Shown here: in pieces, positions 175 to 18,592 of the stretch
Position numbering within the stretch: the stretch's first letter is position 1
How the letters are laid out: each line of letters opens with the position of its first letter
NCBI GenBank assembly: GCA_964403345.1
Contig: CAYOGU010000001.1
Location: 1-37,548, forward strand
Length of the DNA: 37,548 bases
From: an uncultured Syntrophus sp.
GTDB lineage: Bacteria; Desulfobacterota; Syntrophia; Syntrophales; UBA5619
Direction: 5' to 3'
Program-made: the position numbers and the translations under genes
Notes under the pieces: generated by a model
Databases searched by the model: none
What the model saw: the letters and a program-made list of their open reading frames with translations, nothing else
Told to the model about the DNA's origin: nothing

Positions 175-1323
175 TCAGTATTTGCAGTTGTCCTGGAAGG
201 TTTCCCACATCGCGATGAAGTTCTCCACGGGAACGTCGTCCTGGACGTTATGGACGGTGGAGAAGACGAACCCGCCGCCCGGTGCGAAGGTGTCGATGAG
301 CCGCTTCGTCTCGTCCCGGACCTGCTGGGGCGTGCCGTTGGGCAGGGTCGCCTGGGTGTTGATCCCGCCTCCCCAGAAGACGATGTCCTTCCCGAACTCT
401 TTCTTGAGCCGCTCGGGTTCCATGTTCGTTGCTGCGATCTGGACGGGGTTGAGGATGTCGTAGCCCGCATCGATGATGTCCGGCAGGATGTCGTAGACCG
501 ACCCGCAGGTATGGAGCATGATTTTGACGTCCTGTTTGGACTTGATGTGGGCGTTGAGCTTTTTGTGGCAGGGCATCATCATCTCCCGGATCAGCTTCGG
601 AGAGACGAAGGTGCCGCGCTGGGTGCCGAAATCGTCTGGCTCGGCGGTGGTGTCGATCAGGCCGCCGTAGACCTCGAAGATGTTGTCGTAGTACTCTATT
701 TTCTTCTCAAGCAGTTTCTCCATGAAGGGGATGCACCGTTCCGGTTCGGCCACGAGCATGGCCAGCCAGTTCTCGAACCCCCAGACGAGGGGCCCGGTCT
801 GGAGGAAGCCGTTGCCGAAGACCTCGGTAATCATGGTGGCATAACCGGCCTTTCGGTAGTCCTCGAGCTCCTTGCGATCCTCCTTGGCGAACTTCTCCGG
901 CACGGGCCAAACGAACGCCTGGTCCTCTTCGGCGCTTTCCGAATTCTTGAGGACCGTGTCGTAGAGGTCGAAGTAGAGGGCCTTCTGCTTGGGCATCCGG
1001 TAGAGGGTGCCCCATTCGTTCCTCGCGTAGTAGCTCTCGTCGTCTTCCCATTTCTTGGAATAGGGATTGGGGGGCTTGATGGGCTTGAGCCTGGGATTGC
1101 GCACGTCACACTTCAGCAGATCCAGCACCCGGTCCGAGGCATAGACGACCTGGTAGGGCAGGCTGCAGATTTCCAGCTTGTCCTCCTTGATGCCGAAATA
1201 ATCCAGCAGTTTCAAGTAGAAATACTTGGTGAACTTGCAGCAGTGGCCGGACCCGAGGTCCAGGGGGATGCGGTCGGGTTCCCTGTGATTCAGGGCGCAC
1301 AGCACTCTTTCACGTGAATTCAT
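175..1323 (-). CDS. URO-D (uroporphyrinogen decarboxylase) family, MtaA/MtbA-like corrinoid-dependent methyltransferase (candidate substrate:corrinoid MT I)
   Basis: 382-aa ORF. ATG at 1323 is preceded by TAGGAGG. Contains 'REPDRIPLDLG' and 'LHTCGS...ILNPVQ' (H-x-C-G zinc-type motif), typical of URO-D-like methyltransferases. Lies 11 nt downstream of a corrinoid protein gene. Confidence 0.8.
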   Translation of the reverse strand: MNSRERVLCALNHREPDRIPLDLGSGHCCKFTKYFYLKLLDYFGIKEDKLEICSLPYQVVYASDRVLDLLKCDVRNPRLKPIKPPNPYSKKWEDDESYYARNEWGTLYRMPKQKALYFDLYDTVLKNSESAEEDQAFVWPVPEKFAKEDRKELEDYRKAGYATMITEVFGNGFLQTGPLVWGFENWLAMLVAEPERCIPFMEKLLEKKIEYYDNIFEVYGGLIDTTAEPDDFGTQRGTFVSPKLIREMMMPCHKKLNAHIKSKQDVKIMLHTCGSVYDILPDIIDAGYDILNPVQIAATNMEPERLKKEFGKDIVFWGGGINTQATLPNGTPQQVRDETKRLIDTFAPGGGFVFSTVHNVQDDVPVENFIAMWETFQDNCKY

Positions 1324-1334
1324 GAACGGTCCTC

Positions 1335-1976
1335 CTAGTTGAGACGTTTATTCAGTTCTTTGGCCTTGCTCGCGGCCGTGGCCGCGTCCGCCGCAAATCC
1401 GTCGGCTCCGATGGAATCGACAAAGTTCTGGGTGATGGGGGCCCCGCCCACCATGACCTTCACCTGGCTCCTCACCCCTGCGGCGATGAAGGCGCCGAGC
1501 GTCTCCTTCACGGCCGGCATGGTCGTGGTCAGGAGGGCCGAAATTCCCAAGACCTTGCAGTCGGGGTTGGCCTTGATCGCCTCGATGAACGTTTCGGCCT
1601 TCACATCCACGCCCAGGTCGATCACTTCGAACCCCTGGCTCTCGACCATCATGGCGACGAGATTCTTGCCGATGTCGTGCAGGTCCCCCGCCACGGTTCC
1701 GATGATGAACTTGCCGATCGTGGCACCGGTTTCGCCAACCAGCTGCGGCCTCAATGTCTCCAGACCCTTTTTCATGGCCCGGGCAGCGACGAGCATTTCC
1801 GGCACGTAAATCTGACCGGCCTTGAATTTTTCGCCGACAGCCCCCATGGTGTCGATCATTCCCTGCAAAATCTCCAAGGGCTTCAGGCCATCCCCGATGG
1901 CCGCCCCGATCAGGTCCTGAACATTCTTCCCCTTGCCAGATTCAATGGCTGCAGCAATCTCCTGGATTTTGGACAT
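1335..1976 (-). CDS. Corrinoid (cobalamin-binding) methyl-carrier protein, MtaC/MtbC/MttC-like
   Basis: 213 aa. Helical cap plus B12-binding Rossmann domain with 'GTVAGDLHDIGKNLV' (D-x-H-x2-G), 'SALLTTT' and 'GGAP'. RBS GGGAGAAAAAACAG precedes the ATG at 1976. Confidence 0.9.
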   Translation of the reverse strand: MSKIQEIAAAIESGKGKNVQDLIGAAIGDGLKPLEILQGMIDTMGAVGEKFKAGQIYVPEMLVAARAMKKGLETLRPQLVGETGATIGKFIIGTVAGDLHDIGKNLVAMMVESQGFEVIDLGVDVKAETFIEAIKANPDCKVLGISALLTTTMPAVKETLGAFIAAGVRSQVKVMVGGAPITQNFVDSIGADGFAADAATAASKAKELNKRLN

Positions 1977-2031
1977 CTGTTTTTTCTCCCTTTCTCTATT
2001 GAGTGGTTATGGCGGACTTCTTCGAAATCCC

Positions 2032-2066
2032 CTGCCCTGGCATAAACGGGCAACATCCCAGGGCAG
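2032..2066 (-). other. Intercistronic hairpin between the DUF1638 and corrinoid protein genes
   Basis: CTGCCCTGG-(17 nt)-CCAGGGCAG, a 9-bp perfect stem with only a weak U-rich tail (GGGAUUUCG) on the minus strand. Confidence 0.35.
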
Positions 2067-2075
2067 CCGCACACA

Positions 2076-2756
2076 TTAAAAAAACATCTCCTGCTTGAAG
2101 GCCTCGCCTGACTCGAGGCGGACGAATTTATCCCCCTCATAGGGTCCCTGAACAATCTCGCGGAAGTAATCGAGGCTGCCCGGGATCTCCTCATACCGCT
2201 TCTTCAGGGCATCGGCGTTCTGGATCGCCCGCGCCCTCAGCGGCGCCATCTCTTCCACGCCCGTATCGATCAGGGCGATATGGGTGTAATGTTTGAACTC
2301 CTCCTCCAGGACCCACTCCGCCGTCTCACGGTCGAACCTGGCGGCGTTCTCTTCGAGAATGCCCAGGGGATCCTTCTTCTCCGCGATCCAGCCGGGAGTC
2401 AGGTAATAGGTCCCCGGCTTCTGACGGAACACTTCCTGATAGCGGGAGGGCGATCCAAGAAACAGGGCAATGCAGTCGTGGCAGCGGGGGATAATGAGTC
2501 CCTGCCGACGCGCCGTGACGCCGACCACGCCATTGGAACACAGGCCGTACCCCAGGACGATCCGGGATGCCTCCTGCGCCGCCTGGTCGACCTTCTCCTG
2601 GAGCTGGCCCAAGAGCCGCGTTGGCGTCCGGTGGAGGGCCTGGTCGAGGTAGACGACCTCCACATCTTCCCCTGTCTCCGCCCGAACCCGCTCCAGCTCC
2701 GGTTCCATGACGCGGCATGCGATGACGACCCGCCTGCCGATGTTCGCATTCCTCAT
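2076..2756 (-). CDS. DUF1638-like protein (uncharacterised family that recurrently neighbours corrinoid methyltransferase genes)
   Basis: 226 aa. N-terminus 'VVIACRVMEPELERV' and overall size resemble DUF1638 as I remember it. Family assignment is from memory and was not searched. RBS GGGAGAAGGG. Confidence 0.55.
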   Translation of the reverse strand: MRNANIGRRVVIACRVMEPELERVRAETGEDVEVVYLDQALHRTPTRLLGQLQEKVDQAAQEASRIVLGYGLCSNGVVGVTARRQGLIIPRCHDCIALFLGSPSRYQEVFRQKPGTYYLTPGWIAEKKDPLGILEENAARFDRETAEWVLEEEFKHYTHIALIDTGVEEMAPLRARAIQNADALKKRYEEIPGSLDYFREIVQGPYEGDKFVRLESGEAFKQEMFF

Positions 2757-2831
2757 GGCCCTTCTCCCTATCCGGATTCCCAGGCTCTCCTTCCCTCGGC
2801 GTTCGTGACCGGGGGATGGAGAGCCTGAACA

Positions 2832-4163
2832 TCAGAAGATGTGGTTCGGTATCCACGTAACGATATCGGGGAATAGGCACATGAGGATGACCCCAATGAC
2901 CTGCATGACCATGAACGGAATGGTCGCCCAGTACAGCTCGCTGATCGGGATCGGGATCTTCTGCTGCTGCGCCACCCCCTTGACGTAAAAGGCCGCATAG
3001 GAGAAGGGCGGCGACAGGTAGGAGATCTGGATCATCACGGCGAACATGACCCCGAACCAGAGGGGATCAAATCCCATCGCGTTGATGATGGGGGTGAAAA
3101 CGGGGATGCCGATGAGGAGCATCCCGTAGCAGTCGATGAACATCCCCATGATGTAGAGGATGAAGAAGATCAGCGAAACGATCACCCAGGGGTTGACGTT
3201 CAGGCCGCTGACGATGCTGTTGATCGCATCGCCTCCGCCGAGTCCCAGGAATACAGCCGTGAACATCGTGGCGCCCAGGATGATGAACATGATCATCGAA
3301 GTCGTCTTGACCGTCAGGTAGCAGCACTCCTTGGTCACTTTCCAGTTGAGTTTCTTGTTGTAGATGGCGACTGCCATGGCGCCGCAGCAGCCGAGGGCCG
3401 CCGCCTCCGTCGGCGTCGCGGCGCCCACCAGAATGGTTCCCAGGACCAGAAGGATCAGGATGGAGGTGGGCAGGACCGACTTGAAGAACATGTACCACTT
3501 CTGCGTACGACTGTACTTGGCCGCCTCGGACGGATCGATGGCCGGTGCGCTCTCAGGCTTGGTGACGATCTTCCAGATGATGTAGACCAAATAGAGAACC
3601 GACAGGGTCAGCCCGGAGCCGATGCCGCCGGCGAAGAGCTTGCCGATTGAAATCTGGGCCTGGGCTCCGTAGATGACCAGGATGATACTCGGCGGGATGA
3701 GGGTCCCCAGGCAACCGGCCGCCATGATCGTGCCGGCCGCGAGCTTTGCGTCGTACTTGCACTTGTGCATGGCAGGCAGGGCCAGGATCGTCATCAGGGT
3801 GATCGAAGCACCGATGATGCCGCTCGCCGCGGCCAGCAGCGTGCAGATGACGACCGTCGTGATCGCGATGCCTCCCCGCAGGGGGCCGAAGATGACGTAC
3901 ATGGAATCGAAGAGGTCGTCGGCCGCTCCCGACCTCTCGAGCATGGCCCCCATGAAGATGAACAGGGGAATCGACGTGTAGACGATGTTCGTCCCGATGC
4001 TCGTCGTGGTCCGGACGAAGAGGTTCAGGGCAGCGGGGTTTCCCCATACCGTCGCCGCGGAGATGCAGGCCAGCCCGCCCAGGGTGAAGGCCAGGGGGTG
4101 GCCGCTCAGAAGGACGATCAGAAAAAGGACGCCGACAATGGCAAGGGTTTCCAGCGGTGTCAT
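2832..4163 (-). CDS. TRAP transporter large permease, DctM family
   Basis: 443 aa, highly hydrophobic multi-TM protein. The ATG overlaps the stop of the upstream small permease gene (ATGA coupling at 4160-4163). About 12 TM segments, typical DctM length. Confidence 0.9.
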   Translation of the reverse strand: MTPLETLAIVGVLFLIVLLSGHPLAFTLGGLACISAATVWGNPAALNLFVRTTTSIGTNIVYTSIPLFIFMGAMLERSGAADDLFDSMYVIFGPLRGGIAITTVVICTLLAAASGIIGASITLMTILALPAMHKCKYDAKLAAGTIMAAGCLGTLIPPSIILVIYGAQAQISIGKLFAGGIGSGLTLSVLYLVYIIWKIVTKPESAPAIDPSEAAKYSRTQKWYMFFKSVLPTSILILLVLGTILVGAATPTEAAALGCCGAMAVAIYNKKLNWKVTKECCYLTVKTTSMIMFIILGATMFTAVFLGLGGGDAINSIVSGLNVNPWVIVSLIFFILYIMGMFIDCYGMLLIGIPVFTPIINAMGFDPLWFGVMFAVMIQISYLSPPFSYAAFYVKGVAQQQKIPIPISELYWATIPFMVMQVIGVILMCLFPDIVTWIPNHIF

Positions 4164-4675
4164 AGTTCTACCCCCTTGGTGACGTAGACGAGATCACGGA
4201 TCCATTTCGCCAGCCCCTGCAAGAGCAGGAGGAGATAGCTGACCGCGAAGATGACCTTCAGGGGATACAGGGGGGGCGCCCACATGCTGAAGGTGGTCTC
4301 CCGGATGCCGACCGAGTAGATCGCGTTCCCGCCCATCTTCCAGACCATGACGCCGGCAAAGACGAAGAAGACCGTGGTAAAGAAGAAGAGATCAAAATAG
4401 GCTTTCCACTTCTTGGAAAGGCTGTTGTAGAAGACGTCCGTGCGGACGTGGTTGCTCTCCTTGAGCACCCAGGCCCCGCCCATCATGAAGAAGGCGCCGA
4501 AGAGCATGGCCGCCAGCTCCCAGCTCCAGTCCGTGGGCTTCTGGATGACGTAACGGAGAATCGATTCCCCGGTCTCCAGAACGATGATGGGCAGGACCAG
4601 CATGCTGAAAAGTTTCCCGGCCCAGACGCTCAAGGAATCGATTCCTTTTAGCAGTTTGTCGATTTTTGCAATCAT
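4160..4675 (-). CDS. TRAP transporter small permease, DctQ family
   Basis: About 171 aa with 4 predicted TM helices, located between the dctP-like and dctM-like genes. The ORF track starts at a GTG at 4684, only 2 nt after AAGGAG. I prefer the ATG at 4675 (11-nt spacing). The start is uncertain by 9 nt. Confidence 0.8.
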   Translation of the reverse strand: MIAKIDKLLKGIDSLSVWAGKLFSMLVLPIIVLETGESILRYVIQKPTDWSWELAAMLFGAFFMMGGAWVLKESNHVRTDVFYNSLSKKWKAYFDLFFFTTVFFVFAGVMVWKMGGNAIYSVGIRETTFSMWAPPLYPLKVIFAVSYLLLLLQGLAKWIRDLVYVTKGVEL

Positions 4676-4773
4676 GGCTTTCACGACTCCTTATCCCGTT
4701 CGAAGGGTGCAGCCGTCCGCTCATCACGACGGCTGCACCCTCAGGCACTCCGACTCGTTCGACCGAGAACCGG

Positions 4774-5865
4774 TTACTTGTACGTCCCGGGCTTGAATCC
4801 CATCTGCTGCTCCGGCGTCAGGCCGTCACCCCACCACGCAGCCATGGTTTTGTAGGGGTACCAGACTTCCATGAATTTGTAGATCGAATTGTAGGTTTCC
4901 GCCGTAAGGCCGCCGTACTTCTTGATGTCCTCCTGCTCGATGGCGTACATCTGCTTGCGCAGTTCGATGAACGGCGCCTTGTCCATCCGCGAGAACTGCA
5001 TCTTCTTCTTCGCTGCCAGATCGCGCATGGCCACGGCGCTCAGGTACTGGCTCTTGGTCCAGTGCTGGTGCTCGCGGGCCTTGAAGGCCAATTCCACGAC
5101 GGTCTGGATGTCCTGGGGCAGCTTGGCCCAAGCGCTCTTGTTGACCACGACGGTCGTGATGAAATGTCCGTTCCAGAAGTCCGGGAAGATCCCGTGCTTG
5201 GCAATGTCGGTCAGGCCGAGGCCCTCGTTGTACTTGAGGTGTCCGAATTCGGCCGCATCCACGGTGCCGGTCTGGAGGCCCGTGAACACCTCTTCAAGCG
5301 GCAGCGTGATACCGGCCACGCCGTACTTGGCCAGGAGCCGGGGATCGGAGGTCCGCATTTTCCTGCCCTTCATCTCGGCAAGGCTCTTGTAGGGTTTGTT
5401 CGCCATCATGACCTCGGTTCCCCAGATCTCCACGGCCAGGAGCTTGAGGTTCATCTTGTCGAAGGCCTTCTGGAGCAGGTTCCATCCGCCGAACTCATAG
5501 ACCCAGACCCACCGGTCATGGGCGTCGAGTCCAAGCCCCATCGTGGACAGGGGCAGGAAGGCGTACTCCACGCCCTTTGCGTAGACCGGCCAGCTTGAGT
5601 GCATCTCGAAGACGCCGTCGCCGCAGGCCTGAAAGGCCTCCAGGCTGGGGGCGAAGGTCCCGTTCGGGCTGACCTTGATCTGGAGCCTTCCGCCGGTGGC
5701 CTTCATGATGTCCTCGGCCGTCTGCGTGTTCTGCGCGAAATCGGAATGGGCGTTGCTGTGAATGACCTGCATCCGCCACGTCCACTGGGGCGACGCCGAC
5801 CAAGCGACCGAAGCAAAACAAAGCGCCGTCAGTAAAGCCACGAGAAACAACCCCTTCATTTTCAT
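4774..5865 (-). CDS. TRAP transporter substrate-binding protein, DctP family (Sec signal peptide)
   Basis: 363 aa. Signal peptide 'MKMKGLFLVALLTALCFASVAWSA'. 'KGRKMRTSD' matches the DctP-family G-x-K-x-R strand that carries the carboxylate-binding Arg. RBS GAAGGAGG. Confidence 0.85.
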   Translation of the reverse strand: MKMKGLFLVALLTALCFASVAWSASPQWTWRMQVIHSNAHSDFAQNTQTAEDIMKATGGRLQIKVSPNGTFAPSLEAFQACGDGVFEMHSSWPVYAKGVEYAFLPLSTMGLGLDAHDRWVWVYEFGGWNLLQKAFDKMNLKLLAVEIWGTEVMMANKPYKSLAEMKGRKMRTSDPRLLAKYGVAGITLPLEEVFTGLQTGTVDAAEFGHLKYNEGLGLTDIAKHGIFPDFWNGHFITTVVVNKSAWAKLPQDIQTVVELAFKAREHQHWTKSQYLSAVAMRDLAAKKKMQFSRMDKAPFIELRKQMYAIEQEDIKKYGGLTAETYNSIYKFMEVWYPYKTMAAWWGDGLTPEQQMGFKPGTYK

Positions 5866-6006
5866 GCCACATCCTCCTTCATTCTGTGAAAATCACTTAT
5901 GATCCCAACCGATGCCGGATCATCCCTTGGTCTTCATCGCAACCGATGAGATTCCAGCGCAACCTGGAAAGAGGCCCGCAGGCCGCCCTCGTTCACGTCG
6001 CGCAAC

Positions 6007-7782
6007 TTAACGGAGCAGATCCCGGCAGAGCCTCGCCGCAGCCGGTGCATCGTAGGAAGTGCCGTCGGCGCCGATCTGCGCGGCAAAAGCCGGCGTCACG
6101 GGAGCGCCTCCCACGATGATCTTGACGACATCCCGAAGACCCTCGGACTTGAGGGCATCGATCGTATTCTTCATCTCGATCATCGTCGTGGTCAGCAGGG
6201 CGCTCATCGCCAGGATATCCGGCTTTCGGTTCCTGACCGCCTGGATGAACTTCTCCGTGCTCACCGATACCCCCAGGTCCTCCACCTGGAACCCCTGCCC
6301 TTGGAGAACCATCAACACCAGGTTCTTGCCGATGTCATGCAGGTCCCCATGCACGGTCCCGATCACGACCTTTCCAAGCGGCCGGGCCTCCCCCTTGCCG
6401 GCCAGGATCGGCTTGAAGTGGTCCAGCGCCTCGGACATGGCCCGCGCCGCGATCATCATCTCGGGGATATAGATCTGACCGTTCTGGAACATTTCGCCGG
6501 CGACGGTGATGGCCGGGATCATCCCCCGGCACACGACCTCCCCTGCCGCCATGCCGCCGTCGATCTCCCGCTGCATCATGTCGATCAGCTTGGGAACGTC
6601 GTCGGCGATGAGGGACTCCGCGTAAGCCTCCACATCCAGCCCCGTCTTCACCTTCGTCGTCTCGCTCCTGCGGATCTTCGTCTGGGAAGTCCAGATCTTC
6701 CCTTTGACCCCTCCTTCCTCCAGACGGATCGGGTACTTCCCGAATTCATAGGCCGCATCGAGCAGGGCCCTCATGTTTTTCACGGGAACGTAGTCAGTGA
6801 TGGAGTTTGAAGAGGCCACCATGTAGCCGCCGCCCGGAGCGATCGTCCGTATACGCTCATAGACCTCGGCCCGGACATCCTCGGGTGTCCCCAGCGTCAG
6901 GGTCGAATCGAGGTTGATGTTGCCGATCAGGCAGAGTTTCTTCCCCCACCGCTTCTTCACCTCGACGATGTTCATGGCGTTGGGCTGGACAGGATTGAAA
7001 CCGTGGAATCCGCAGTCGATCAGGTCATCCATTACCTCGGTGCAGTCGCCGTCGCTGTGCAGGACAAAGCCAATTCCTTTCTCCCGGCAGATCCGGCCCA
7101 TCTTCTGGTACCAGGGGAAAACATGCTTGCGCAGATATTTGGGATGAACCAGAAGCCCCGTGTTGAAGGCGATGTCGTCGGGGTTGATCACGGCCCCCAC
7201 GCAGGGGTGTTCGATGACCCGCAGGAAGGTCTGGTACTGGATCTCACCGATCTTGTTGATGATCGCCGCCACCAGTTCCTCATCCTGTTCCAAGGCGTTG
7301 AAAAAGGTCTCGGCCCCCATGTACATCCAGGCCGGGGTATAGATCTTTCCCAAGAGGAGAATCGCCTTCATCCCCTTGGGAAGGATTCGGTCGAAGACGC
7401 TCCACTTCGACAGGTCGAAATTGTCCGCCTTGGGCCAGTCATATTTCTCGAACTTCTCCCAGCTCGTGATGACCCCTTCATGGGTATACGCCCACTCCCG
7501 GGAAACCCTGTCCCCATACTCGGTGCGAACGCCTTCGCCTTTCAGCGTCATCCCTTCCGGCGCCCGGACCGGCTCCAGGATGCCGGAGGAAGAGGTCACG
7601 AAATCAAAACCCGCCTCATACCAGAAATCCACGTAGTCTTGCAGGGTCCTGATCTGCCTCCCCAGGAACGCCTCTTTGGGTCTCTGGTCCACGTGCCAGT
7701 CTCCCAGGGGCACCCGGTCGGGCTCCTCGCAGTGGAGAGCCGTCATGTACCTCTCGAAATCCGGCTTCGGTTCTCTGCCCAT
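6007..7782 (-). CDS. Fusion protein: N-terminal URO-D-like methyltransferase domain plus C-terminal corrinoid-binding domain
   Basis: The ORF is open to 7920, but the ATG at 7782 has a GGGAGGCAAGG RBS and begins the URO-D-like 'EEPDRVPLGDWH'. The C-terminal ~215 aa carry 'GTVHGDLHDIGKNLV', 'SALLTTT' and 'GGAP', as in the stand-alone corrinoid protein at 1335-1976. Confidence 0.8.
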   Translation of the reverse strand: MGREPKPDFERYMTALHCEEPDRVPLGDWHVDQRPKEAFLGRQIRTLQDYVDFWYEAGFDFVTSSSGILEPVRAPEGMTLKGEGVRTEYGDRVSREWAYTHEGVITSWEKFEKYDWPKADNFDLSKWSVFDRILPKGMKAILLLGKIYTPAWMYMGAETFFNALEQDEELVAAIINKIGEIQYQTFLRVIEHPCVGAVINPDDIAFNTGLLVHPKYLRKHVFPWYQKMGRICREKGIGFVLHSDGDCTEVMDDLIDCGFHGFNPVQPNAMNIVEVKKRWGKKLCLIGNINLDSTLTLGTPEDVRAEVYERIRTIAPGGGYMVASSNSITDYVPVKNMRALLDAAYEFGKYPIRLEEGGVKGKIWTSQTKIRRSETTKVKTGLDVEAYAESLIADDVPKLIDMMQREIDGGMAAGEVVCRGMIPAITVAGEMFQNGQIYIPEMMIAARAMSEALDHFKPILAGKGEARPLGKVVIGTVHGDLHDIGKNLVLMVLQGQGFQVEDLGVSVSTEKFIQAVRNRKPDILAMSALLTTTMIEMKNTIDALKSEGLRDVVKIIVGGAPVTPAFAAQIGADGTSYDAPAAARLCRDLLR

Positions 7783-7828
7783 CCTTGCCTCCCGTTCCCC
7801 TCTTCGATTCGTCCAGGCTCGGTTGATT

Positions 7829-8623
7829 CTATTCGATGCGACCTTCCCGAAATGCGCCGATGTACTCCATGCAGAAGTCGTCCTTGCCGGCAACCATGGT
7901 GACGGCCTTGAGCATGGCAAAGAGCTGCTTGTCCGTGGGATCGATGATCGCCGAATCCAACCCCATGGTGATCGCGGCAGCCAGAAACGCCCGGTTGACC
8001 AGTTTTCTCGCAGGAAGGCCGTAGGAAACGTTCGTCAGGCCGCAGACCGTGTGGACGCCGGGAAAGCGATTCATGATCCTGCTGATCGCCTTGAGGGTTT
8101 CGCTGGCCGACTGGGGATTGGTCGAGAGGGGATAGACCAGGGGATCAATGAGGATGTCGTCCAGGGGGACCCCCGCGCCGGTGAGCCTCTCCACCAGCCG
8201 TCCGGCCATCTCGACCTTGAGTTCGGCCGTCTCGGCCATCGCCTCCTCGGCCTGGCACAGGGCGATGATCTTGGTCTTGAATTCCACCACCAGCGGCAGG
8301 ATCCCTCCGAGCCGCGAGGGCTCCAGGGTGATGGAGTTGATGATCGGAGTCCTCTTGACCAGAGGCAGCATCGCCTTGATCACCTCCGGATCGGGGCTAT
8401 CGATGGAGAGGGGCAGGTCCGTCACCTCCTGGACGGCCTCCACGATCCATTTGAGCTTTTCGGCCTCCTCGCCGACAAAGGTCCCGGCATTCACATCGAT
8501 GTAATGGGAGCCGGCCTCGGTCTGGGCCTTGGCCTCTGCCTGTATAAACGCCCTGTCCCCCGCAGCGATGGCCTGGGCAATGGATTTCCGCGAGGCATTG
8601 ATCCTCTCAGCAATGATCAGCAT
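7829..8623 (-). CDS. Methyltetrahydrofolate:corrinoid methyltransferase (pterin-binding, MeTr/AcsE/MtrH-like; candidate MT II)
   Basis: 264 aa starting at 'MLIIAERINASR' (ATG 8623, RBS AAAGGAGGAGA). Pterin-binding barrel motifs 'IDVNAG', 'LSIDS', 'INSITL' and 'GLTNVSYGLP'. Confidence 0.85.
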   Translation of the reverse strand: MLIIAERINASRKSIAQAIAAGDRAFIQAEAKAQTEAGSHYIDVNAGTFVGEEAEKLKWIVEAVQEVTDLPLSIDSPDPEVIKAMLPLVKRTPIINSITLEPSRLGGILPLVVEFKTKIIALCQAEEAMAETAELKVEMAGRLVERLTGAGVPLDDILIDPLVYPLSTNPQSASETLKAISRIMNRFPGVHTVCGLTNVSYGLPARKLVNRAFLAAAITMGLDSAIIDPTDKQLFAMLKAVTMVAGKDDFCMEYIGAFREGRIE

Positions 8624-8727
8624 GGTGTCTCCTCCTTTTTTGTTGAAAACCCCAAGGGGTGCCGTGTACGGAGGCCGGGTATTCCGGATCGCTGGAGGAC
8701 CACCGACCACCGTCGCACGGCTTTGGC

Positions 8728-10290
8728 TCACTCTTTTTTCTTCCCTGTGGCTTCCCCGCTTCTCGATCTTCCGGCCGTGTGATCCTTTCCCGAATAGAAG
8801 TTGATCCAGGAAGAACTCTGGTAGAGATCCCAGTTGCAGGGGGGAATGCTGCGCCCGTCCAGCATCCTCTCCTGACCGTACCGTTTCAGCCGGGCATAGG
8901 CCGTCACATAGATGCATCGCCTCTTGCCCGGATGGACCTCGCACCAGCCGTCGCGGCTCCCGCCGCAGGCCCCGTTCCGCTGGTTTTTCGGACAGCGCGA
9001 CATGGGACAGACATAGGCCGCATCGGGCAGGGCGCAATCCCCGCAGTTCAGGCAGCCGTAGAGGAGAAACTTGGCGAGGTGCTCGATCCCGGCGAAGGGG
9101 GCCTCCAGGGCCGTCCCCCCGATCCGGCTGCTCAGGGCCTGCATGGGGCCGTAGAGGCCTCGTCCGGGCTCGAACAGAAGTCCGTGACAGACGCGCGACA
9201 GGCGGTAGACGAAATCGACCGGGGCGTCGAGGGGCCTCCCCCGGCGGGCCGTGGGACAATCGGTATTGAGGCCCGTCTTGGAGTCCCGTTCGTAGTAGTA
9301 GAAGCCGTCCGGCTGGGGATAGTCGAAATGGCGGACCAGGTCGGGCCAGTTGGGGCTCAGGGCCTCCCCCTGTTCGATGATGGCCTCCACTTGGTCATAG
9401 CGGAGGTTGTGCCCGCCGATGTGGACGCCGGAAAAGCCCATCCCCTTCAGGATCGCGTACATCCGCGCGGCCCTGAGGATCCGTGCCCCTTCCCCCTTGT
9501 CGGCAGCCTCCCGCTCCCGGTCCAGATCGGCCAGGAGCTGGTCGGTGACGACGCAGCCGGGGAATCGGTTCTGATGCATCAACTTGGCCACGCCGAAGGA
9601 GAGGACGAAGAGGTTCCCTACCAGGGGGACATCCAGACCGTTTTGCCTCATGAACCGGACCAACTCGTGGTATTTCCGGGCGTCGTAGCCCAACTGGGTG
9701 ACGACGAAGGCCGCCCCGGCGGCGATCTTCTTTTTCAGTTTGAAGTACTGGACCATCGTTTCCGCTTCGGTCGCCTTGAAAGGCGAGACGGCCGCACCGG
9801 CGAAAAAGTGGCTGGGGCTGAGCCGGATCGGTCCCTTGGGTCCGGGGTACTCGTGTCCGCGGTTCATCGACCCGATCAGATCGAGGGTCTGGATGGGGTC
9901 GAGGTCGAAGACCGGTTTGGGTCTTCCCTGAAAACCGGTCACGGGATAATCGCCGCTCATGACCAGCAGGTTCCTCACCCCTGCCCGGTCGAGAGCGTAA
10001 AGTTCGGACTCGATCTGATTGCGGTTCTTGTCCTTGCAGGTGAAGTGGACGAGAGGTTCGATGCCGAGCTGCAGGATTTCGGCGCCTAGGCAGCCGGCCA
10101 GGATCGCGGGGTTGCCGCCGGGATTGTCCGTGATCGTCAGGGCATGGACTTTCCCACCCTGGATAGCTTGTCGGGCGCTCTCGAGGGCCTTCTCCTGATC
10201 CTTCTCCCGGGCTCCCCTTCCCGGAATCAACTCCCAGGTCACCGACAGGGTCGCCGGGTCCATGAGCGAGGTCTTGAAACGGTTCTCCAT
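8728..10290 (-). CDS. metF: Methylenetetrahydrofolate reductase with fused C-terminal MetV-type Cys-rich (MTHFR_C) domain
   Basis: About 520 aa from the ATG at 10290 (RBS GGAGGAAGGAAGG). The N-terminal MTHFR barrel contains 'HFTCKD' and 'NLLVMSGDYP'. The C-terminal 'CLNCGDCALPDAAYVCPMSRCPKNQRNGACGGS..WCEV' matches the CPK..NG.CGG signature of MetV/MTHFR_C. Confidence 0.85.
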   Translation of the reverse strand: MENRFKTSLMDPATLSVTWELIPGRGAREKDQEKALESARQAIQGGKVHALTITDNPGGNPAILAGCLGAEILQLGIEPLVHFTCKDKNRNQIESELYALDRAGVRNLLVMSGDYPVTGFQGRPKPVFDLDPIQTLDLIGSMNRGHEYPGPKGPIRLSPSHFFAGAAVSPFKATEAETMVQYFKLKKKIAAGAAFVVTQLGYDARKYHELVRFMRQNGLDVPLVGNLFVLSFGVAKLMHQNRFPGCVVTDQLLADLDREREAADKGEGARILRAARMYAILKGMGFSGVHIGGHNLRYDQVEAIIEQGEALSPNWPDLVRHFDYPQPDGFYYYERDSKTGLNTDCPTARRGRPLDAPVDFVYRLSRVCHGLLFEPGRGLYGPMQALSSRIGGTALEAPFAGIEHLAKFLLYGCLNCGDCALPDAAYVCPMSRCPKNQRNGACGGSRDGWCEVHPGKRRCIYVTAYARLKRYGQERMLDGRSIPPCNWDLYQSSSWINFYSGKDHTAGRSRSGEATGKKKE

Positions 10291-10348
10291 GAATCCCCCC
10301 CTTCCTTCCTCCCGCACGTCCATAGGGCCGTGCGGGAGGGTCCGATCC

Positions 10349-11236
10349 CTATCTGACGCCGGATGCGAGTTTAGCCGCCTTGAGGGTGTTCATCATCAAC
10401 ATCGTGATCGTCATCGGCCCCACGCCGCCGGGAACCGGCGTAATGAAGGAAGCCTTCTGGCGGACTGCCTCGAAGTCCACATCCCCCACGAGCTTCGCTT
10501 TCCCCTCTGAGGTCACCCCGATCCGGTTGACCCCCACGTCGATCACGACCGCCCCTTCCTTGACCATGTCCGCCGTCACCGCATTGGGCCTCCCGGCCGC
10601 CACGATCAGGATGTCGGCCCGGCGCGTATGGGACGCCGTGTCCCGGGTCCCCGTGTGGCAGACCGTCACCGTCGCGTTCGCCCCGGCCTGCTTCTGGAGA
10701 AGAATGTTGGCGATCGGTTTCCCCACGATGTTCGACCGGCCCACGACCACGACCTCGGCCCCGTCGGTCTTCACGCCGGAGCGGATCAGAAGCTGCTGGA
10801 TCCCCGCCGGGGTGCAGGGCAGATAATCGGCCTGCCCGATCACCATCTTCCCCACGTTGACGGGATGGAACCCGTCCACGTCCTTTTTCGGATCGATGGC
10901 GTAGAGGACCTTGGTCTCGTCGATCTGCCGGGGCAACGGGAGCTGGACGAGGATCCCGTGGATCTTCTCGTCCCGGTTGCACCGTTCAATCAGGGCCAGG
11001 AGTTCGCCCTCGGTGGTTTCTTCCGGAAGGTTTTCCTGTACGGAATGGAAACCGATCTCCTTGGCCGTCCTCTGTTTGCCCGCCACGTAGCTCATCGAAG
11101 CGGGGTTCTTTCCCACCAGGATGGTCGCCAGTCCCGGAACCACGCCGCATCGTTGCTTGAGGCTGGCCGTTTCCCCGGTCAATTCCTCACGGATCTGCCG
11201 GGCCACCTCGGTGCCGCTGATCAGCTTTGCCGTCAT
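10349..11236 (-). CDS. folD: Bifunctional methylene-THF dehydrogenase / methenyl-THF cyclohydrolase
   Basis: 295 aa. Contains 'GILVQLPLP', 'DVDGFHPVNVG' and 'VVVGRSNIVGKPIANILL', all classic FolD motifs. Confidence 0.95.
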   Translation of the reverse strand: MTAKLISGTEVARQIREELTGETASLKQRCGVVPGLATILVGKNPASMSYVAGKQRTAKEIGFHSVQENLPEETTEGELLALIERCNRDEKIHGILVQLPLPRQIDETKVLYAIDPKKDVDGFHPVNVGKMVIGQADYLPCTPAGIQQLLIRSGVKTDGAEVVVVGRSNIVGKPIANILLQKQAGANATVTVCHTGTRDTASHTRRADILIVAAGRPNAVTADMVKEGAVVIDVGVNRIGVTSEGKAKLVGDVDFEAVRQKASFITPVPGGVGPMTITMLMMNTLKAAKLASGVR

Positions 11237-11254
11237 GATGCTGCCTCCTTGACC

Positions 11255-13030
11255 TTAGAAGAGTCCCCGGACCCGGCCTGTCTCCACATCAACGTCGACC
11301 CGGCGGTAGGCGGGATCGGACGCCGTCCCCGGCATCAGTTTGATTTCCCCCGCCACCGGGACGAGGAACTTCGCTCCCCCGTAGATGAGGATGTCCCGGA
11401 TGGGGAGGGTCCAGTTCCTCGGCCGCCCCTTGAGGGCCGGATCGTGGGTGAGGCTCAGGTGCGTCTTGACCATGCAGGTGGTAAAATCCTGAAACATTGG
11501 ATCGGCCTCGAACCGCTCGGCCTTGTCCAGAGCGGCCGGCGAATAGGTGACGTAGTCGGCCCCGTAGATCTCCTGGGCGATCTTTTCGATCCGTCCGCGC
11601 AACGGAAGTTTCTGATCGTAAAGGAACCGGAAGGTGTTCTCCTGTTCGCAGGCCTCGACCACGGCATCGGCCAGTTCGAGGGCCCCCTCGCCGCCCTTGA
11701 GCCAATGTTCGGAGAGGGCGACCCTGGCTCCCGCCTGCTCGCCCAGGCGGCGCAACAGCTTGACTTCCTCCTTCGTGTCCGTATGAAAGCTGTTGATGCA
11801 GACCACCGGGCTGATCCCCGCCTTCTTGACGGTCTCGATATGGGCCAAGAGGTTCTCGAAGCCCTTCTCGAGGAGTGAAAGGTTCTCCGTCGTGTAGGCG
11901 GGATCGAGCTTCTTGCCCGGAGCGACCTTCGGCCCGCCGCCGTGCATCTTGAGCGCCCGGATCGTGGCGACGATCACGGCGCAGCTCGGGACGAGGCCGC
12001 TCAAGCGGCACTTGATGTTCCAGAATTTCTCAAACCCGATATCGGCCCCGAAGCCGCTTTCCGTCACATGGTAATCGGTCAGCTTGAGGGCCACGCGGTC
12101 GGCGATGATCGAATTCTGACCGACGGCGATGTTGGCGAAAGGACCGGCATGGACGAAGACCGGCTGGCCTTCGATGGTCTGAAGGAGGTTGGGGTTGATC
12201 GCCTTGACCATCCAGGCGGTCATCGCACCGGCCACATCCAGATCGGAGGTGGTCACCGGCTCGCCCCATCGGTTGTAGGCCACGACGATCCGCCCCATCC
12301 GTTCGCGCAGATCCTTGATCCCCGTTGCGATGGAGAGGATGGCCATGATCTCGGAGCTGACGGTGATGGCGAAGCCCGAACTCATCATGAAGCCATCCAT
12401 CCTGCCTCCCAGGCCGATCACGATGTCCCGGAGGGCCTGGGCGCAAAAATCGATCACCCATTTCATCTGGACGTTCCGGGGATCGATGTCGAGCCGTTTG
12501 AGGTTCTTGGATGCGAGCACGGCGTCGTTGTAGTTGGCCTCGTGCTGCATCCGCGACGTGAGGGCGACCATCGCCAGGTTGTGGGCGCTCGACACGCAGT
12601 CGATGTCGCCGGTGAGCCCCAGGGAAAAGGGGGTGAGCGGGATGCACTGGGCGAGCCCTCCGCCCGCGGCGCTCCCCTTGATGTTGAACGTGGGTCCTCC
12701 CGACGGCTGGCGGATCGCCCCGCTGACCTTCTTTTTCCTTTTGGCCAAGCCCTGCACCAGCCCCATGACGGTTGTGCTCTTCCCCTCTCCGAGGGGAGTG
12801 GGGGTGACCGCCGTCACGTCGATGTATTTTCCGTTCGGTCTGTTCTCCAGGCGATGGAGCACCTTCAGGAAGTCCACCTTGCCGATGTGATGTCCCATCG
12901 GGATCAATTCGTCTCCCTGGATCCCGGTCTCATCCGCCAATTCGAAGATTTTCTTCATGTGCCTTTCGGCCGCCTCGGCGATCTGCCAGTCCTGCAACTT
13001 TCTCGGATCCATTTCCGTACGCTCGAACAT
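11255..13030 (-). CDS. fhs: Formate-tetrahydrofolate ligase
   Basis: 591 aa. Contains '[16 protein letters not shown]' (FTHFS P-loop). Length and overall pattern are typical. RBS AAGGAGG lies 7 nt before the ATG at 13030. Confidence 0.95.
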
Positions 13031-13101
13031 CCTTTTACCTCCTTGCTACAACCGATCCTCGTCGGTTGGACGATTCGTGCAACCCAACCATTCCACTCCA
13101 C

Positions 13102-13896
13102 TTACTCCAGTCGCCCCTTTCGGTAGGCGACAATATAACCCAAACAGGACTCGTCCCGGCCGGTAATCAATTCCCCCGCCTTGAGTGTGGCAAAGAGCTG
13201 CCGGTCCGTCGGATCGATGATCGCCGAGTCCAGCCCCCGGTCCATGGCCGCCGCGAGGAAGGTCCGGTTGATCAGGGAACGCACAGGAAGGCCGTAGGAA
13301 ACCGTACTCAGACAACAGATCGTATGCACCCCCTTGAAGCAGCCCATGATCCGACTGATGGCCTCGAGGGTGGCCCTGGCGGACTGCTGATTGGTGGACA
13401 GGGAGTAGACCAGCGGGTCGATGTAGAGGTCCCCCGGCTGGATGCCGGCAGCGGTGATTTTTTCGATAAGCATGGTCGCAATTCCCACCTTGGCGTCTGC
13501 CGTCTCGGCGGGACTATTCTCGGCCTGACAGGAGGCGACCAGTTTCGCCCGATAATCGATCGCCAGGGAGAGAATCCCCTCCATGCGTCCCTTTTCGAGG
13601 GTCACGGCGTTAATCATCGGTCGATGCTTGACGATGGGGAGGACTTCCCTGAGCACCGCCGGATCGCGGCTGTCCAGACACAGGGGAAGATCTGTGACCT
13701 CCTGGACCGCATCGATCACCCAGCGGAGGTGCACCGCCTCGTTCCGGCCGAATATCGCCGCGTTGAGATTGAGGTAGTCGGCCCCGGAGGCCTCCTGGTC
13801 ACGCGCCTCGCCATGGATGAATTCCCGGTTACGGCTGGCGATCGCCTGGGCGATGTAGCGCCGCGTGGCGTCGATCCTGTCGGCGATGATCAGCAT
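13102..13896 (-). CDS. Second methyl-THF:corrinoid methyltransferase paralog (pterin-binding domain)
   Basis: 264 aa, collinear without gaps with the 7829-8623 product (for example 'AVQEVTDLPL', 'IDPLVY', 'LDSAIIDPTD'). It reads 'CLSTVSYGLP' where the paralog has 'GLTNVSYGLP'. Confidence 0.8.
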   Translation of the reverse strand: MLIIADRIDATRRYIAQAIASRNREFIHGEARDQEASGADYLNLNAAIFGRNEAVHLRWVIDAVQEVTDLPLCLDSRDPAVLREVLPIVKHRPMINAVTLEKGRMEGILSLAIDYRAKLVASCQAENSPAETADAKVGIATMLIEKITAAGIQPGDLYIDPLVYSLSTNQQSARATLEAISRIMGCFKGVHTICCLSTVSYGLPVRSLINRTFLAAAMDRGLDSAIIDPTDRQLFATLKAGELITGRDESCLGYIVAYRKGRLE

Positions 13897-15057: not shown

Positions 15058-16374
15058 TCAGCTCCTGAAGAGATACTTGGGCGCCAAGAGGATAATGTCC
15101 GGGATGTACATGCACATCACCAGCCCCAGGAACTGCAGCCCCAGGAACGGGAAGGCCGACTTCCAGACATCCACCGTGGAGACCTCGGGCGGAGAAACGC
15201 TCTTGAGGTAGAAGAGCGACATCCCGAAGGGCGGCGTCAGGAAGGACATCTGCAGGTTCACGGCGATCAGGACCCCGAACCAGATCGGGTCGAAGCCGAG
15301 CTGCCGGATGATGGGCCCGAAGAGGGGGATGATCAGCATGAGGATCCCGACCCAGTCCACGAAGCAGCCCAGGAAGATCACGATTCCCATCATGATCCAG
15401 ATGACGACCCACCTGTTGAGGCCCGATCCCACGAGCATGACGTTGACGAAATCCCCGCCGCCCACCATGATGTAGAGGGCGATGAAGATGTTCGCCCCGA
15501 ACATGGTCCACATGACCATCCCGGTGGCCTTGATCGTGTTGACCGCGGCCTGGACCGTGTCCTTCCAGCTCAGGCGGCGCTTGATGACCCCGATGAGCCA
15601 GGCCCCGAGGCACCCGACGCCGGCCGCCTCGGTCGGGGCTGCGACGCCGATGACGATCGTCCCCAGGACCAGGAAGATCAGCATCCCGCCCGGGATGATC
15701 GGCAGGGCGACCCGGAACAGGCCGGCCCAGTCCAGACGTTCCTCCTTCGGGACGGGCGGACCCATTTTTGGGTTGATGTAGCAACGGATCGTGATGTAGA
15801 GGATGTAGAGCGCCGAGAGCAGGAAGCCCGGCAGGAAGGCCCCGGCGTAGAGCTGGCCGATGGAGGAATTGTCCACCATCCCGTAGACGATCAGCATGAC
15901 GGACGGGGGGATCAGGATCCCCAGGGTCCCGCCGGCCAGGATGCCGCCCAAAGCCAGAAGCTTGTCGTACTTGCGGTTCAGCATCTGGGGCAGGGCGATC
16001 ATGCCCATGGTGACCTCGGTGGCCCCCACGACGCCGGCCATGGCGGCCATCATGGTGCAGGCCGCGATCGTCGCCGTGGCCACGCCGCCCTTGAGCCAGC
16101 CGAGCCAGTGGTAGACCATCATGTAGATGTCCTCGATGATCCCGCTCCGCTCGAGGAGGTTCGCCATCAGGATGAACAGCGGAATGGCGTCCAGGAGGTA
16201 GTTGGTCATGAGTCCGAAGATCCGCGTCGGAACGATGTTGACAGCCTCCGGGCCCTGGAAGAAGGCGGTGAAGACGATGCCCACGAACCCGGTGGAAAAG
16301 GCCACCGGCAGGCCCAGGAACATGACCAACACCATGCTGCCGAAGATGAGTATGGTAATCCATTCGATGCTCAT
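15058..16374 (-). CDS. TRAP transporter large permease, DctM family (second system)
   Basis: 438 aa, polytopic, clearly a paralog of the 2832-4163 product (for example 'IPLFILMANLLERSG' against 'IPLFIFMGAMLERSG'). ATGA overlap with the upstream dctQ-like gene. Confidence 0.9.
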   Translation of the reverse strand: MSIEWITILIFGSMVLVMFLGLPVAFSTGFVGIVFTAFFQGPEAVNIVPTRIFGLMTNYLLDAIPLFILMANLLERSGIIEDIYMMVYHWLGWLKGGVATATIAACTMMAAMAGVVGATEVTMGMIALPQMLNRKYDKLLALGGILAGGTLGILIPPSVMLIVYGMVDNSSIGQLYAGAFLPGFLLSALYILYITIRCYINPKMGPPVPKEERLDWAGLFRVALPIIPGGMLIFLVLGTIVIGVAAPTEAAGVGCLGAWLIGVIKRRLSWKDTVQAAVNTIKATGMVMWTMFGANIFIALYIMVGGGDFVNVMLVGSGLNRWVVIWIMMGIVIFLGCFVDWVGILMLIIPLFGPIIRQLGFDPIWFGVLIAVNLQMSFLTPPFGMSLFYLKSVSPPEVSTVDVWKSAFPFLGLQFLGLVMCMYIPDIILLAPKYLFRS

Positions 16375-16916: not shown

Positions 16917-17100
16917 GGTTCAGCCTTTCCAAGCGAATTCTTCGACGGCCCCTCTGCCTCGGGCCGTCCGACGGTCTCTCACGCTCTCCCTGCGTCCCCA
17001 GGGGATTGCGGCGATGCAGCGTGATCCCAAAATCCCAGAGTGATGGGTAAAAGGGACTCCTCGAAGGGCGAGGCCGGCCCTTCCCCTGAAGGCCGCGTTT

Positions 17101-17131: not shown

Positions 17132-17141
17132 CGGAACGGAT

Positions 17142-18586: not shown

Positions 18587-18592
18587 CAACGG

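Follow-up and report, generated by a model that had tools for sequence, protein, structure and literature searches.

A cluster of twelve genes in a 37,548-nt stretch of contig CAYOGU010000001.1 (hereafter the window, to which all positions refer) is probably a catabolic system with which an uncultured, Syntrophales-like deltaproteobacterium harvests methyl groups from a methylated carboxylate imported by a tripartite ATP-independent periplasmic (TRAP) transporter. The cluster (positions 175-13896, minus strand; Table 1) encodes all three components of such a transporter (DctP1Q1M1; PF03480, PF04290 and PF06808), a candidate substrate:corrinoid methyltransferase (MT I) of the UroD superfamily (UroD382), a corrinoid protein (CP213), a DUF1638 protein, a protein in which a second UroD domain is fused to a corrinoid domain (hereafter the fusion), two methyl-corrinoid:tetrahydrofolate (THF) methyltransferases (MT II-1 and MT II-2), and the THF enzymes MetF::MetV, FolD and Fhs. 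Genes were called from open reading frames (ORFs) together with Pfam and NCBIfam profile searches, and all those named in an earlier, sequence-only reading of this DNA lie on the minus strand in the order it gave, with only small corrections to their boundaries. The twelve genes are all co-directional; no intergenic gap exceeds 141 nt, no strong terminator is predicted inside the string, and the gene order is repeated in independent contigs (L015-L019 and L024 in our numbering of related loci), indicating that it is not due to chance. The closest named relatives of the encoded proteins come from metagenome-assembled genomes (MAGs) labelled Syntrophales, Deltaproteobacteria or Thermodesulfobacteriota.

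As the sequence-only reading proposed, the encoded proteins suffice to move the methyl group of an anion, once imported, by way of Co-CH3 and CH3-THF as far as formate. The transporter would bring in a methylated small carboxylic acid, whose methyl group would be moved by a UroD-superfamily methyltransferase to the Co(I) of a corrinoid partner. The main candidate for this step is UroD382 with CP213, a putative Zn site of UroD382 polarising the leaving group; for the fusion, the acceptor would be the corrinoid domain at its own C-terminus. MT II-1 and MT II-2 would pass the methyl group of CH3-Co(III) to THF, and MetF::MetV, FolD and Fhs would oxidise CH3-THF to formate, with one ATP at Fhs; formate and reducing equivalents would presumably go to a syntrophic partner. 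The analysis shows which genes are present, their order and common direction, their conserved linkage, and the joint inheritance of TRAP, corrinoid protein and UroD382 across phyla. The direction of flux, the pairing of the UroD proteins with a substrate, and the substrate itself are what we infer here; that the sequence alone does not reveal the substrate had been recognised from the outset.

An apparent mosaic of three modules

Twenty-one window proteins were mapped by tblastn onto 102 related loci (L-numbers), and the called-gene tables of 15 contigs were read. The cluster had been described as hard-wired, but this comparison resolves it into a mosaic whose three modules differ in evolutionary history: module A, the C1 branch (MT II-2, Fhs, FolD and MetF::MetV); module B, MT II-1 and the fusion; and module C, DctP1Q1M1 with CP213 and UroD382. 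The string (MT II-2)-Fhs-FolD-MetFV-MT II-1-fusion is kept in the lineage of the window, where the fusion is 82-93% identical, and module B appears to have been inherited vertically in this Syntrophales-like lineage. The MT II-fusion pair adjoins a TRAP operon in every relative examined with enough flanking sequence (L001, L002/3, L010, L012 and L015-L020). The TRAP found in that slot in L002, L003, L010, L018 and L019 has a solute-binding protein (SBP) 24-25% identical to DctP1, and sister contigs with a fusion 82-84% identical to that of the window hold another TRAP and other UroD and corrinoid genes there. These sister loci also carry a second fusion paralogue of 640-647 aa, UroD336 (MtaA-like, with the full HxC...C motif), CP212, a DUF1638 protein and a divergent reductive activase (RACo).

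Module C recurs outside this lineage. By local tblastn alignment, the Desulfofustis glycolicus proteins are 69% (DctP1; accession WP_073378957), 70% (DctM1), 69% (UroD382) and 67% (CP213) identical to those of the window, and those of a Desulfitobacterium MAG 63%, 62%, 72% and 66% identical (61% for DctP1 and 73% for UroD382 in global MAFFT alignments of the latter). Both cassettes adjoin an MT II gene and a DUF1638 gene, and RACo accompanies that of D. glycolicus only. With Moorella glycerini the TRAP genes alone are common (DctP1 71%, DctM 67%, DctQ 56%), the neighbouring UroD being of the fusion-like 'HSDG' type. The DUF1638 protein of the window is 81-83% identical in sister contigs, as opposed to 32-38% to the copies at cassettes elsewhere, which argues that module C is horizontally shared; the window DUF1638 itself appears to be vertically inherited. 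It would appear that a horizontally shared cassette replaced the resident TRAP and UroD genes beside a vertically inherited core.

A TRAP transporter in a corrinoid methyltransferase operon had been thought unusual. The linkage occurs, however, in the Syntrophales-like lineage, D. glycolicus, M. glycerini, the Desulfitobacterium MAG and L107, and is recurrent and cross-phylum (three phylum-level lineages). At the DctP1-family loci examined, down to ~50% identity, corrinoid and UroD genes always adjoin. L107 (JGI contig Ga0210003_1000082, 41-16524), where the DctP1 relative is 50-54% identical, holds three tandem DctPQM systems; behind two of these, in each case, come genes for a corrinoid protein and a UroD methyltransferase, and an MttB and corrinoid pair lies between the TRAP-CP-UroD cassettes. 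The DctP1 relative of L108 (44% identity) has the same Arg and cation-site motifs; the corrinoid genes are gone there, and the neighbours are a FAD-oxidase/CCG/ETF 2-hydroxy-acid dehydrogenase set, Ldh_2, Fe-ADH and an FGGY kinase. The MT II-CP-UroD382 operon of Desulfitobacterium hafniense (L106, 8487-12025, identical to the DCB-2 ACL22642 locus) has genes for a sigma-54/PAS activator and for major facilitator superfamily (MFS) carriers nearby and, on the opposite strand, a 248-aa DctP fragment only, which may represent a decayed TRAP linkage.

Methyl transfer to THF and oxidation to formate

The two MT II proteins are 57% identical and both exceed the NF005719 cut-off, MT II-2 by less (Table 1). 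The activities of MetF/MetV, FolD and Fhs are all encoded in the cluster; Fhs lies above its equivalog cut-off, and FolD and MetF lie below theirs, though their Pfam matches are strong. The MetF::MetV fusion is also present in L015 and L018. The cluster had been taken to cover every step, which holds for this THF C1 branch but not for the corrinoid methyltransferase set, whose activase is absent from the window (discussed below).

The THF enzymes are all reversible, and the model whose cut-off both MT II proteins exceed is that of a 'methyltetrahydrofolate:corrinoid/iron-sulfur protein methyltransferase'. Both points would suit a system without demethylation, in which Fhs, FolD, MetFV and MT II belong to a methyl-donating route or to a (reverse) Wood-Ljungdahl pathway, as its methyl branch, and either an imported acceptor is methylated by the UroD and corrinoid proteins or the TRAP has no functional tie to the genes beside it; the partly lineage-specific adjacency of the modules would suit it too. 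We nevertheless regard this as very improbable. The window has no genes for carbon monoxide dehydrogenase/acetyl-CoA synthase or for the corrinoid iron-sulfur protein, the partner corrinoid proteins are of the MtaC/MtgC type and not AcsCD, and the TRAP-CP-UroD set is kept across three phylum-level lineages with congruent identities, which is hard to explain without functional coupling.

UroD methyltransferases and corrinoid proteins

The MT I candidates belong to the UroD superfamily, and the 37.5-kb window has no MttB-family gene by Pfam or NCBIfam, in agreement with the sequence-only reading. Neither candidate reaches a family cut-off: UroD382 and the fusion score 53.5 and 53.1 bits against the MtaA/CmuA model TIGR01463 (cut-off 235.4), and both are also below the cut-off of the NCBIfam MtbA model. 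The two UroD domains are 26% identical to each other. UroD382 was modelled by AlphaFold2 (AF2) as a UroD TIM barrel with the MtaA fold (pLDDT 95), and its Foldseek matches are generic UroD and MtaA structures only. Its profile similarity is remote to both MtaA (E 0.009) and CdmB (E 0.31), and a single-sequence search against the PDB gave no match. Residues H271-x-C273, H358, C29 and D231 are invariant in the alignment of its orthologues, which are 69-72% identical in D. glycolicus and the Desulfitobacterium MAG and 70-71% identical in D. hafniense. H271-x-C273 aligns with the Zn ligands of MtaA, H358 replacing the second Cys of H-x-C...C, so that His-x-Cys...His is a putative Zn site. The fusion, in contrast, reads 'LHSDG...SSNS' where MtaA has 'LHICG...PGCG', that is, H-S-D without Cys ligands, and it matches CdmB (E 8e-4) in its C-terminal third only. 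Tested against CdmB, the only solved member, both proteins fall outside the OdmB/MtvB/VdmB/MtoB/CdmB clade. That D. hafniense ACL22642 (71% identical to UroD382) is Dhaf4610 is unproven, and we consider it unlikely, given the lack of similarity between UroD382 and this clade.

Some 120 homologues of the fusion (68-93% identity, 587-614 aa) come from Syntrophales and Deltaproteobacteria MAGs. The order of its domains (URO-D, B12-binding_2, B12-binding) is that of CmuA, a likeness in architecture that does not imply orthology. GDLHDIG (DxHxxG) is present in both CP213 and the fusion, whose corrinoid domains (51% identical to each other) are of the MtaC/MtbC/MtgC type but score below every equivalog cut-off, so that no substrate-specific subfamily can be assigned. 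CP213 is 66-67% identical to the cassette corrinoid proteins of L103 and L105. A longer fusion paralogue (637-647 aa; L018 14922-16865, L002 15050-16972 and L016 8336-10249) is 33-35% identical to the fusion; Pfam detects only its B12 domains, and its very divergent, UroD-like N-terminus ('H-C-D-G-E') is related at 32% to UroD372 of L107. In D. glycolicus (L103 14425-17289, FQXS01000037), a single protein joins DUF1638 to an ATPase of the hydantoinase_A type (ASKHA), beside DUF6951 and RACo, and the hydantoinase_A and DUF6951 pair is also present in L105, which hints at a role for DUF1638 in an ATP-dependent step, e.g. corrinoid activation or loading.

The MtaA-type His-x-Cys of UroD382, aligned with the MtaA Zn ligands and accompanied by the invariant His358, together with the full motif of UroD336 in sister contigs, could instead belong to an S-methyl donor system. 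The TRAP would then import 3-methylthiopropionate, methylthioacetate or dimethylsulfoniopropionate (DMSP), and a Zn-type UroD would demethylate it in the manner of MtsA or MtpA, with release of the mercapto-acid. Two methyltransferase sets would fit a sequential route from DMSP through methylmercaptopropionate (MMPA) to mercaptopropionate, and Kountz and Balskus tie many MtaA-like clusters to methyl-sulfur metabolism (PMC10418091). We think such a system quite unlikely, since both UroD proteins are far under the MtaA/CmuA and MtbA cut-offs (53 vs 235 bits), the fusion has no Cys ligands, neither the window nor L103-L105 has sulfur-metabolism genes, and the fold subgroup of the SBP holds an alpha-oxygen through a cation, which a 3-thioether does not offer.

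The TRAP solute-binding protein and its ligand class

DctP1 belongs to a small family, with 90 matches at E<1e-20. The carboxylate-binding Arg that had been pointed out in 'KGRKMRT' is R171; it is invariant in the 41 family members aligned, as are E206 and D229, and 4pe3, 7ug8 and the TTHA0766-like DctP2 have their Arg at the aligned position. E206 lies in 'DAAEF', thirty-five residues after R171, in a motif identical in 7ug8, and 'PD229' sits where Glu240 of TakP is expected, as judged by motif spacing at ~22% identity with no superposition. The best Foldseek matches of the AF2 model of DctP1 (pLDDT 88.5) are TTHA0766 (lactate/Ca), BB0280, TakP (2-oxo acid/Na), 7ug8 (ketovalerate/Ca), 4pet and 5cm6, the last two of which we take to be pyruvate complexes. 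The top 16 matches all belong to the TakP/TTHA0766 subgroup of cation-dependent 2-oxo/2-hydroxy-acid binders (TM 0.77-0.86), at an identity to solved SBPs of ~22%. In TakP the ligand carboxylate is paired with Arg177 and linked to the 2-oxo oxygen by a cation, whose own ligands are Gln156, Glu214, Glu240 and the carbonyl of Trp215 (PMC1839085). DctP1 appears to keep the cation-site motif of this subgroup, whose members bind 2-oxo/2-hydroxy monocarboxylates, and from the motif spacing we infer a ligand with a carboxylate plus an oxygen at the 2-position.

These features of DctP1 bear on a further alternative, a classical phenyl-methyl-ether O-demethylase, in which the TRAP would import a methoxylated aromatic acid (of the vanillate, syringate, methoxybenzoate or ferulate type), UroD would serve as MT I like MtvB, OdmB and Dhaf4610, and the ring would be degraded elsewhere. 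A UroD MT I, a corrinoid protein and a pterin MT II are the canonical bacterial O-demethylase set (PMC13222342, PMC3727330), and D. hafniense, which is known for O-demethylation and rich in operons of this kind, has UroD382 orthologues (70-71%). Immediately beyond the left edge of the window lie a PocR/AraC regulator and another CP-MFS-UroD-CP set, which would also fit, as would the JGI name of the SBP family ('mannitol/chloroaromatic compound' TRAP). We consider this alternative unlikely, however, as UroD382 and the fusion lie outside the OdmB/MtvB/CdmB clade, the 37.5-kb window has no ring-degradation genes, and the TRAP SBPs whose structures hold lignin-derived aromatics (TarP, 7nte) come far below the 2-oxo/2-hydroxy-acid binders for DctP1: 7nte has rank 40 in the Foldseek list, and the phmmer list contains none of these SBPs. 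The apparent placement of DctP1 in the cation-dependent subgroup, and the second TRAP and glycolate/malyl-CoA-type module upstream, shift the balance from aromatic acids to small 2-oxy-substituted acids.

Substrate class and significance

Among such acids we tentatively favour 2-methoxy short-chain acids, e.g. methoxyacetate, which would yield glycolate; as a substrate class they are possible, if well short of probable. The choice is based on the SBP subgroup and cation-site motifs of DctP1; on the 2-hydroxy-acid gene context of L108, its nearest non-corrinoid relative; on an operon in a sister contig (L016 13156-18309, minus strand) comprising DctQM, a GntR/FCD regulator, UroD336 (HxC...C), CP212 and a LarA-type protein (Lar_N), LarA enzymes being racemases of 2-hydroxy acids; on the glycolate-type module that adjoins in conserved synteny; and on the presence of DctP1 in D. 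glycolicus, a glycolate specialist, and in M. glycerini, another Moorella strain (HUC22-1) being a fermenter of glyoxylate by way of malyl-CoA. It also draws on physiology, since methoxyacetate fermentation is known, and on chemistry, since an aliphatic ether oxygen would need an activating Zn site, as Zn activates methanol in MtaB. Reportedly, as Schuppert and Schink are said to have found in 1990, Acetobacterium ferments methoxyacetate to glycolate plus acetate; we know of no enzymes assigned to this fermentation. Glycolate from methoxyacetate could be handled by the adjacent TRAP2/GlcDEF-like/CitE-like/SucCD-like module, via glyoxylate and malyl-CoA.

Several points weigh against the proposed harvesting of methyl groups from such acids. 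The 37.5-kb window has no RACo/RamA reductive activase gene, and relatives encode one (RACo in L002, L016, L018 and L103, next to DUF1638). The pathway that these genes encode might also operate reductively. DctP1 is only ~22% identical to solved SBPs, with its cation site mapped by motif spacing, so the fold subgroup leaves its ligand class unfixed, and its COG (COG4663) also includes an aromatic-acid transporter. Cleavage of an aliphatic methyl ether involves a leaving group much poorer than a phenolate, and we know of no characterised enzyme of this kind. Finally, the adjacency of the glycolate-type module to the C1/methyltransferase genes is kept within one lineage only (L016-L019, L024, L027, L043, L057 and L085), in which DctP2 is at least ~79% identical, and could be inherited synteny rather than functional coupling; no glc genes lie within 10 kb of the cross-phylum cassettes L103-L105.

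A literature search of incomplete coverage (TRAP with corrinoid, O-demethylase or DUF1638; methoxyacetate; Syntrophales methyltransferases; anaerobic DMSP/MMPA corrinoid systems) returned no description of the cassette. What is new is the cross-phylum, modular TRAP, corrinoid protein and UroD cassette, sometimes in tandem arrays, its insertion beside an MT I of the fusion type and the whole branch from CH3-THF to formate, and, likely, a non-aromatic substrate class. We would go further only speculatively: the DctP1-CP-UroD382 cassette and its tandem paralogues may be the first enzyme family for anaerobic, corrinoid-dependent cleavage of the aliphatic methyl ethers of 2-hydroxy acids (methoxyacetate, 2-methoxypropionate), with a cation-dependent SBP recognising the 2-alkoxy-carboxylate and the UroD Zn site activating the ether oxygen, an idea that we rate as rather doubtful. 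If true, growth would be fully syntrophic, with the methyl group going to formate with ATP at Fhs and glycolate through the adjacent module; the cassette would supply the missing enzymology of methoxyacetate fermentation and a new route by which methyl groups enter syntrophic and methanogenic food webs. Corrinoid methyltransferase systems set which methylated compounds anaerobes turn to acetate, formate or, via partners, methane, and we know of no substrate for most clades of the UroD superfamily. The cassette is a transporter-tagged unit whose SBP family (~90 sequences) is present in the cultured D. glycolicus DSM 9705 and M. glycerini, which makes substrate discovery directly testable through ligand screening of one soluble protein.

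Gene boundaries and neighbouring genes

The ORF of the fusion extends to a TTG at 7920; its true start was set at ~7782 (591 aa) because the ~120 homologues measure 587-614 aa. MT II-1 is the 264-aa C-terminal part of a 476-aa ORF that overlaps metFV. JGI contig Ga0116238_10001175 (53 kb) matches the window at 99.96% identity over 15.9 kb, the only differences being a 2-nt shift and back-shift in dctM1 (3577-3585; 3 residues changed) and a 2-nt deletion in the dctP1-fusion intergenic region (5905), both of which are assembly or population variants that disrupt no frame. No Rfam family, cobalamin riboswitches included, was found in the window, and a scan of the window gave no sigma-54 site directly upstream of MT II-2. 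Left of position 1 (L020 15980-21092) are a PocR/AraC regulator, CP235, an MFS transporter, UroD386 (HTCG...AHN; 28% identical to UroD382) and CP211, one more corrinoid methyltransferase set, which has the MFS carrier in the place of a TRAP.

Table 1. Features of the cluster and of the adjoining module, in window coordinates.
Feature	Position	Strand	Basis
UroD382, UroD-superfamily methyltransferase, candidate MT I of the TRAP cassette, 382 aa	175-1323	-	PF01208, E 7e-22
CP213, corrinoid protein, 213 aa	1335-1976	-	B12-binding and B12-binding_2 (Pfam)
DUF1638 protein, putative accessory, 226 aa	2076-2756	-	Pfam, E 2e-43
DctM1, TRAP large permease	2832-4163	-	full-length Pfam DctM; TIGR00786 293 bits (cut-off 268)
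DctQ1, TRAP small permease	4160-4684	-	Pfam DctQ
DctP1, TRAP solute-binding protein, 363 aa	4774-5865	-	Pfam DctP
UroD::corrinoid fusion, CmuA-like architecture, 591 aa	6007-7782	-	URO-D, B12-binding_2, B12-binding (Pfam)
MT II-1, methyl-corrinoid:THF methyltransferase, 264 aa	7829-8623	-	Pterin_bind; NF005719 316.7 bits (cut-off 259)
MetF::MetV fusion, methylene-THF reductase, 531 aa	8728-10323	-	MTHFR and DUF5981 (Pfam)
FolD	10349-11236	-	both THF_DHG_CYH domains, E 1e-41 to 1e-67
Fhs, formate-THF ligase	11255-13030	-	FTHFS, E 3.5e-226; NF010032 1088 bits (cut-off 938)
MT II-2, paralogue of MT II-1, 264 aa	13102-13896	-	NF005719 267.5 bits (cut-off 259)
Small predicted membrane ORF, 53 aa	14286-14447	-	read from sequence
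Small predicted membrane ORF, 153 aa	14505-14966	-	read from sequence
DctP2Q2M2, second TRAP, lactate/2-hydroxy-acid type	15058-18299	-	Pfam
GlcF/LdhH-like, GlcE-like, GlcD-like, CitE/malyl-CoA-lyase-like, SucD-like and SucC-like module	18593-26499	-	Pfam and NCBIfam
Perfect sigma-54 promoter consensus TGGCACCCATATTGCT, upstream of the SucC-like gene	26761-26776	-	promoter scan

The two small ORFs with hydrophobic stretches lie between dctM2 and MT II-2, in a stretch of 1.1 kb; they have no Pfam or NCBIfam match, and are called and conserved in L018-L020. Upstream of them, positions 15058-26776 look like a second operon-like unit for a syntrophic glycolate/malyl-CoA pathway. Its DctP2 matches the lactate-binding TTHA0766 of Thermus thermophilus at E 3e-140, and its enzymes resemble those of an anaerobic route from glycolate through glyoxylate and malyl-CoA to malate, glycolate being suggested by matches that are all below the equivalog cut-offs (GlcD-like 500 vs 568, GlcE-like 159 vs 284, GlcF-like 167 vs 333). 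The sigma-54 consensus before this unit is the only zero-mismatch match in the window. A strong hairpin of 12 bp, GC-rich and with a T-run (17106-17132, minus strand) follows dctP2 and precedes dctQ2; it may be an intra-operon attenuator that raises the mRNA of the binding protein. The module and TRAP2 form a tight unit in >15 loci, often on their own; the module occurs without the methyltransferase core in L046, L047, L064 and L097, and the core without the module in L001, L002 and L010. We rejected TRAP2 as a part of the methyltransferase system, as it travels with the glc-like genes in >15 loci without methyltransferases. The rest of the window consists of housekeeping genes.

Comparison with known systems

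The malyl-CoA route for anaerobic glycolate/glyoxylate metabolism of Syntrophobotulus glycolicus and Moorella sp. HUC22-1, the latter of which ferments glyoxylate through malyl-CoA (PMC8092247), resembles the neighbouring module in its GlcDEF-like, CitE/malyl-CoA-lyase-like and SucCD-like proteins and 2-hydroxy-acid TRAP. The matches of the module are under the equivalog cut-offs, however, and its assignment to glycolate, in preference to D-lactate or a different 2-hydroxy acid, is tentative. D. glycolicus figures as a glycolate specialist in the reference list of the same article (PMC8092247). With TakP of Rhodobacter sphaeroides and with TTHA0766, DctP1 has in common the carboxylate Arg and, apparently, the fold subgroup and the 'AAE[WF]' cation-ligand motif, but at ~22% identity it stands apart, in a small clade of its own with genomic ties to corrinoid methyltransferases.

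The bacterial O-demethylases (MtvABC of Moorella thermoacetica, OdmABD/VdmB of Acetobacterium dehalogenans and Dhaf4610-4612 of D. hafniense) share with the cluster a UroD MT I, an MtaC-like corrinoid protein and a THF MT II that passes the methyl group on to CH3-THF, and they include an ATP-dependent activase (PMC13222342, PMC3727330). The cluster differs in that its UroD proteins lie outside the OdmB/MtvB/CdmB clade, an importer of the TRAP type is built in, one MT I is fused to a corrinoid domain, the gene string also takes in MetFV-FolD-Fhs, and a phenyl methyl ether is an improbable substrate.

The Cmu chloromethane pathway of Methylobacterium and Hyphomicrobium (CmuA, CmuB, metF2, folD and purU) has in CmuB an MT II of the pterin type, and the cmu clusters carry THF-oxidation genes alongside. 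CmuA joins an N-terminal UroD-type domain to a C-terminal corrinoid domain, as does the fusion (PMC13222342). The fusion scores 53 bits against the mtaA_cmuA cut-off of 235, however, and is without the HxC Zn motif; moreover, Fhs stands in place of PurU, the host is anaerobic, and the TRAP importer implies a charged substrate and not a gas. In the use of glycine betaine by Ruegeria pomeroyi, corrinoid demethylation by MtgBCD feeds CH3-THF to a dedicated MetF paralogue (MetF2) encoded next door (PMC12478193), a likeness to the arrangement seen here. The MT I of that system and of MtgABC in D. hafniense is, however, of the MttB superfamily, absent from the window, and the transporter is a BCCT carrier. 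The mlp gene clusters of Kountz and Balskus were considered and rejected as counterparts, as PMC10418091 mentions neither TRAP nor DUF1638.

MtpCAP of Methanosarcina acetivorans acts on methylthiopropionate. Its operon, which encodes a corrinoid protein, a methyltransferase of the UroD type and a carrier dedicated to a methylated carboxylic acid, is similar in kind to the cluster, but the transporter there is of the MFS type, the acceptor is coenzyme M rather than THF, and the sequence similarity is weak. Set beside all these systems, the cluster contains kinds of enzyme that are already known, whereas we know of no earlier description of the transporter-linked cassette or of its substrate.

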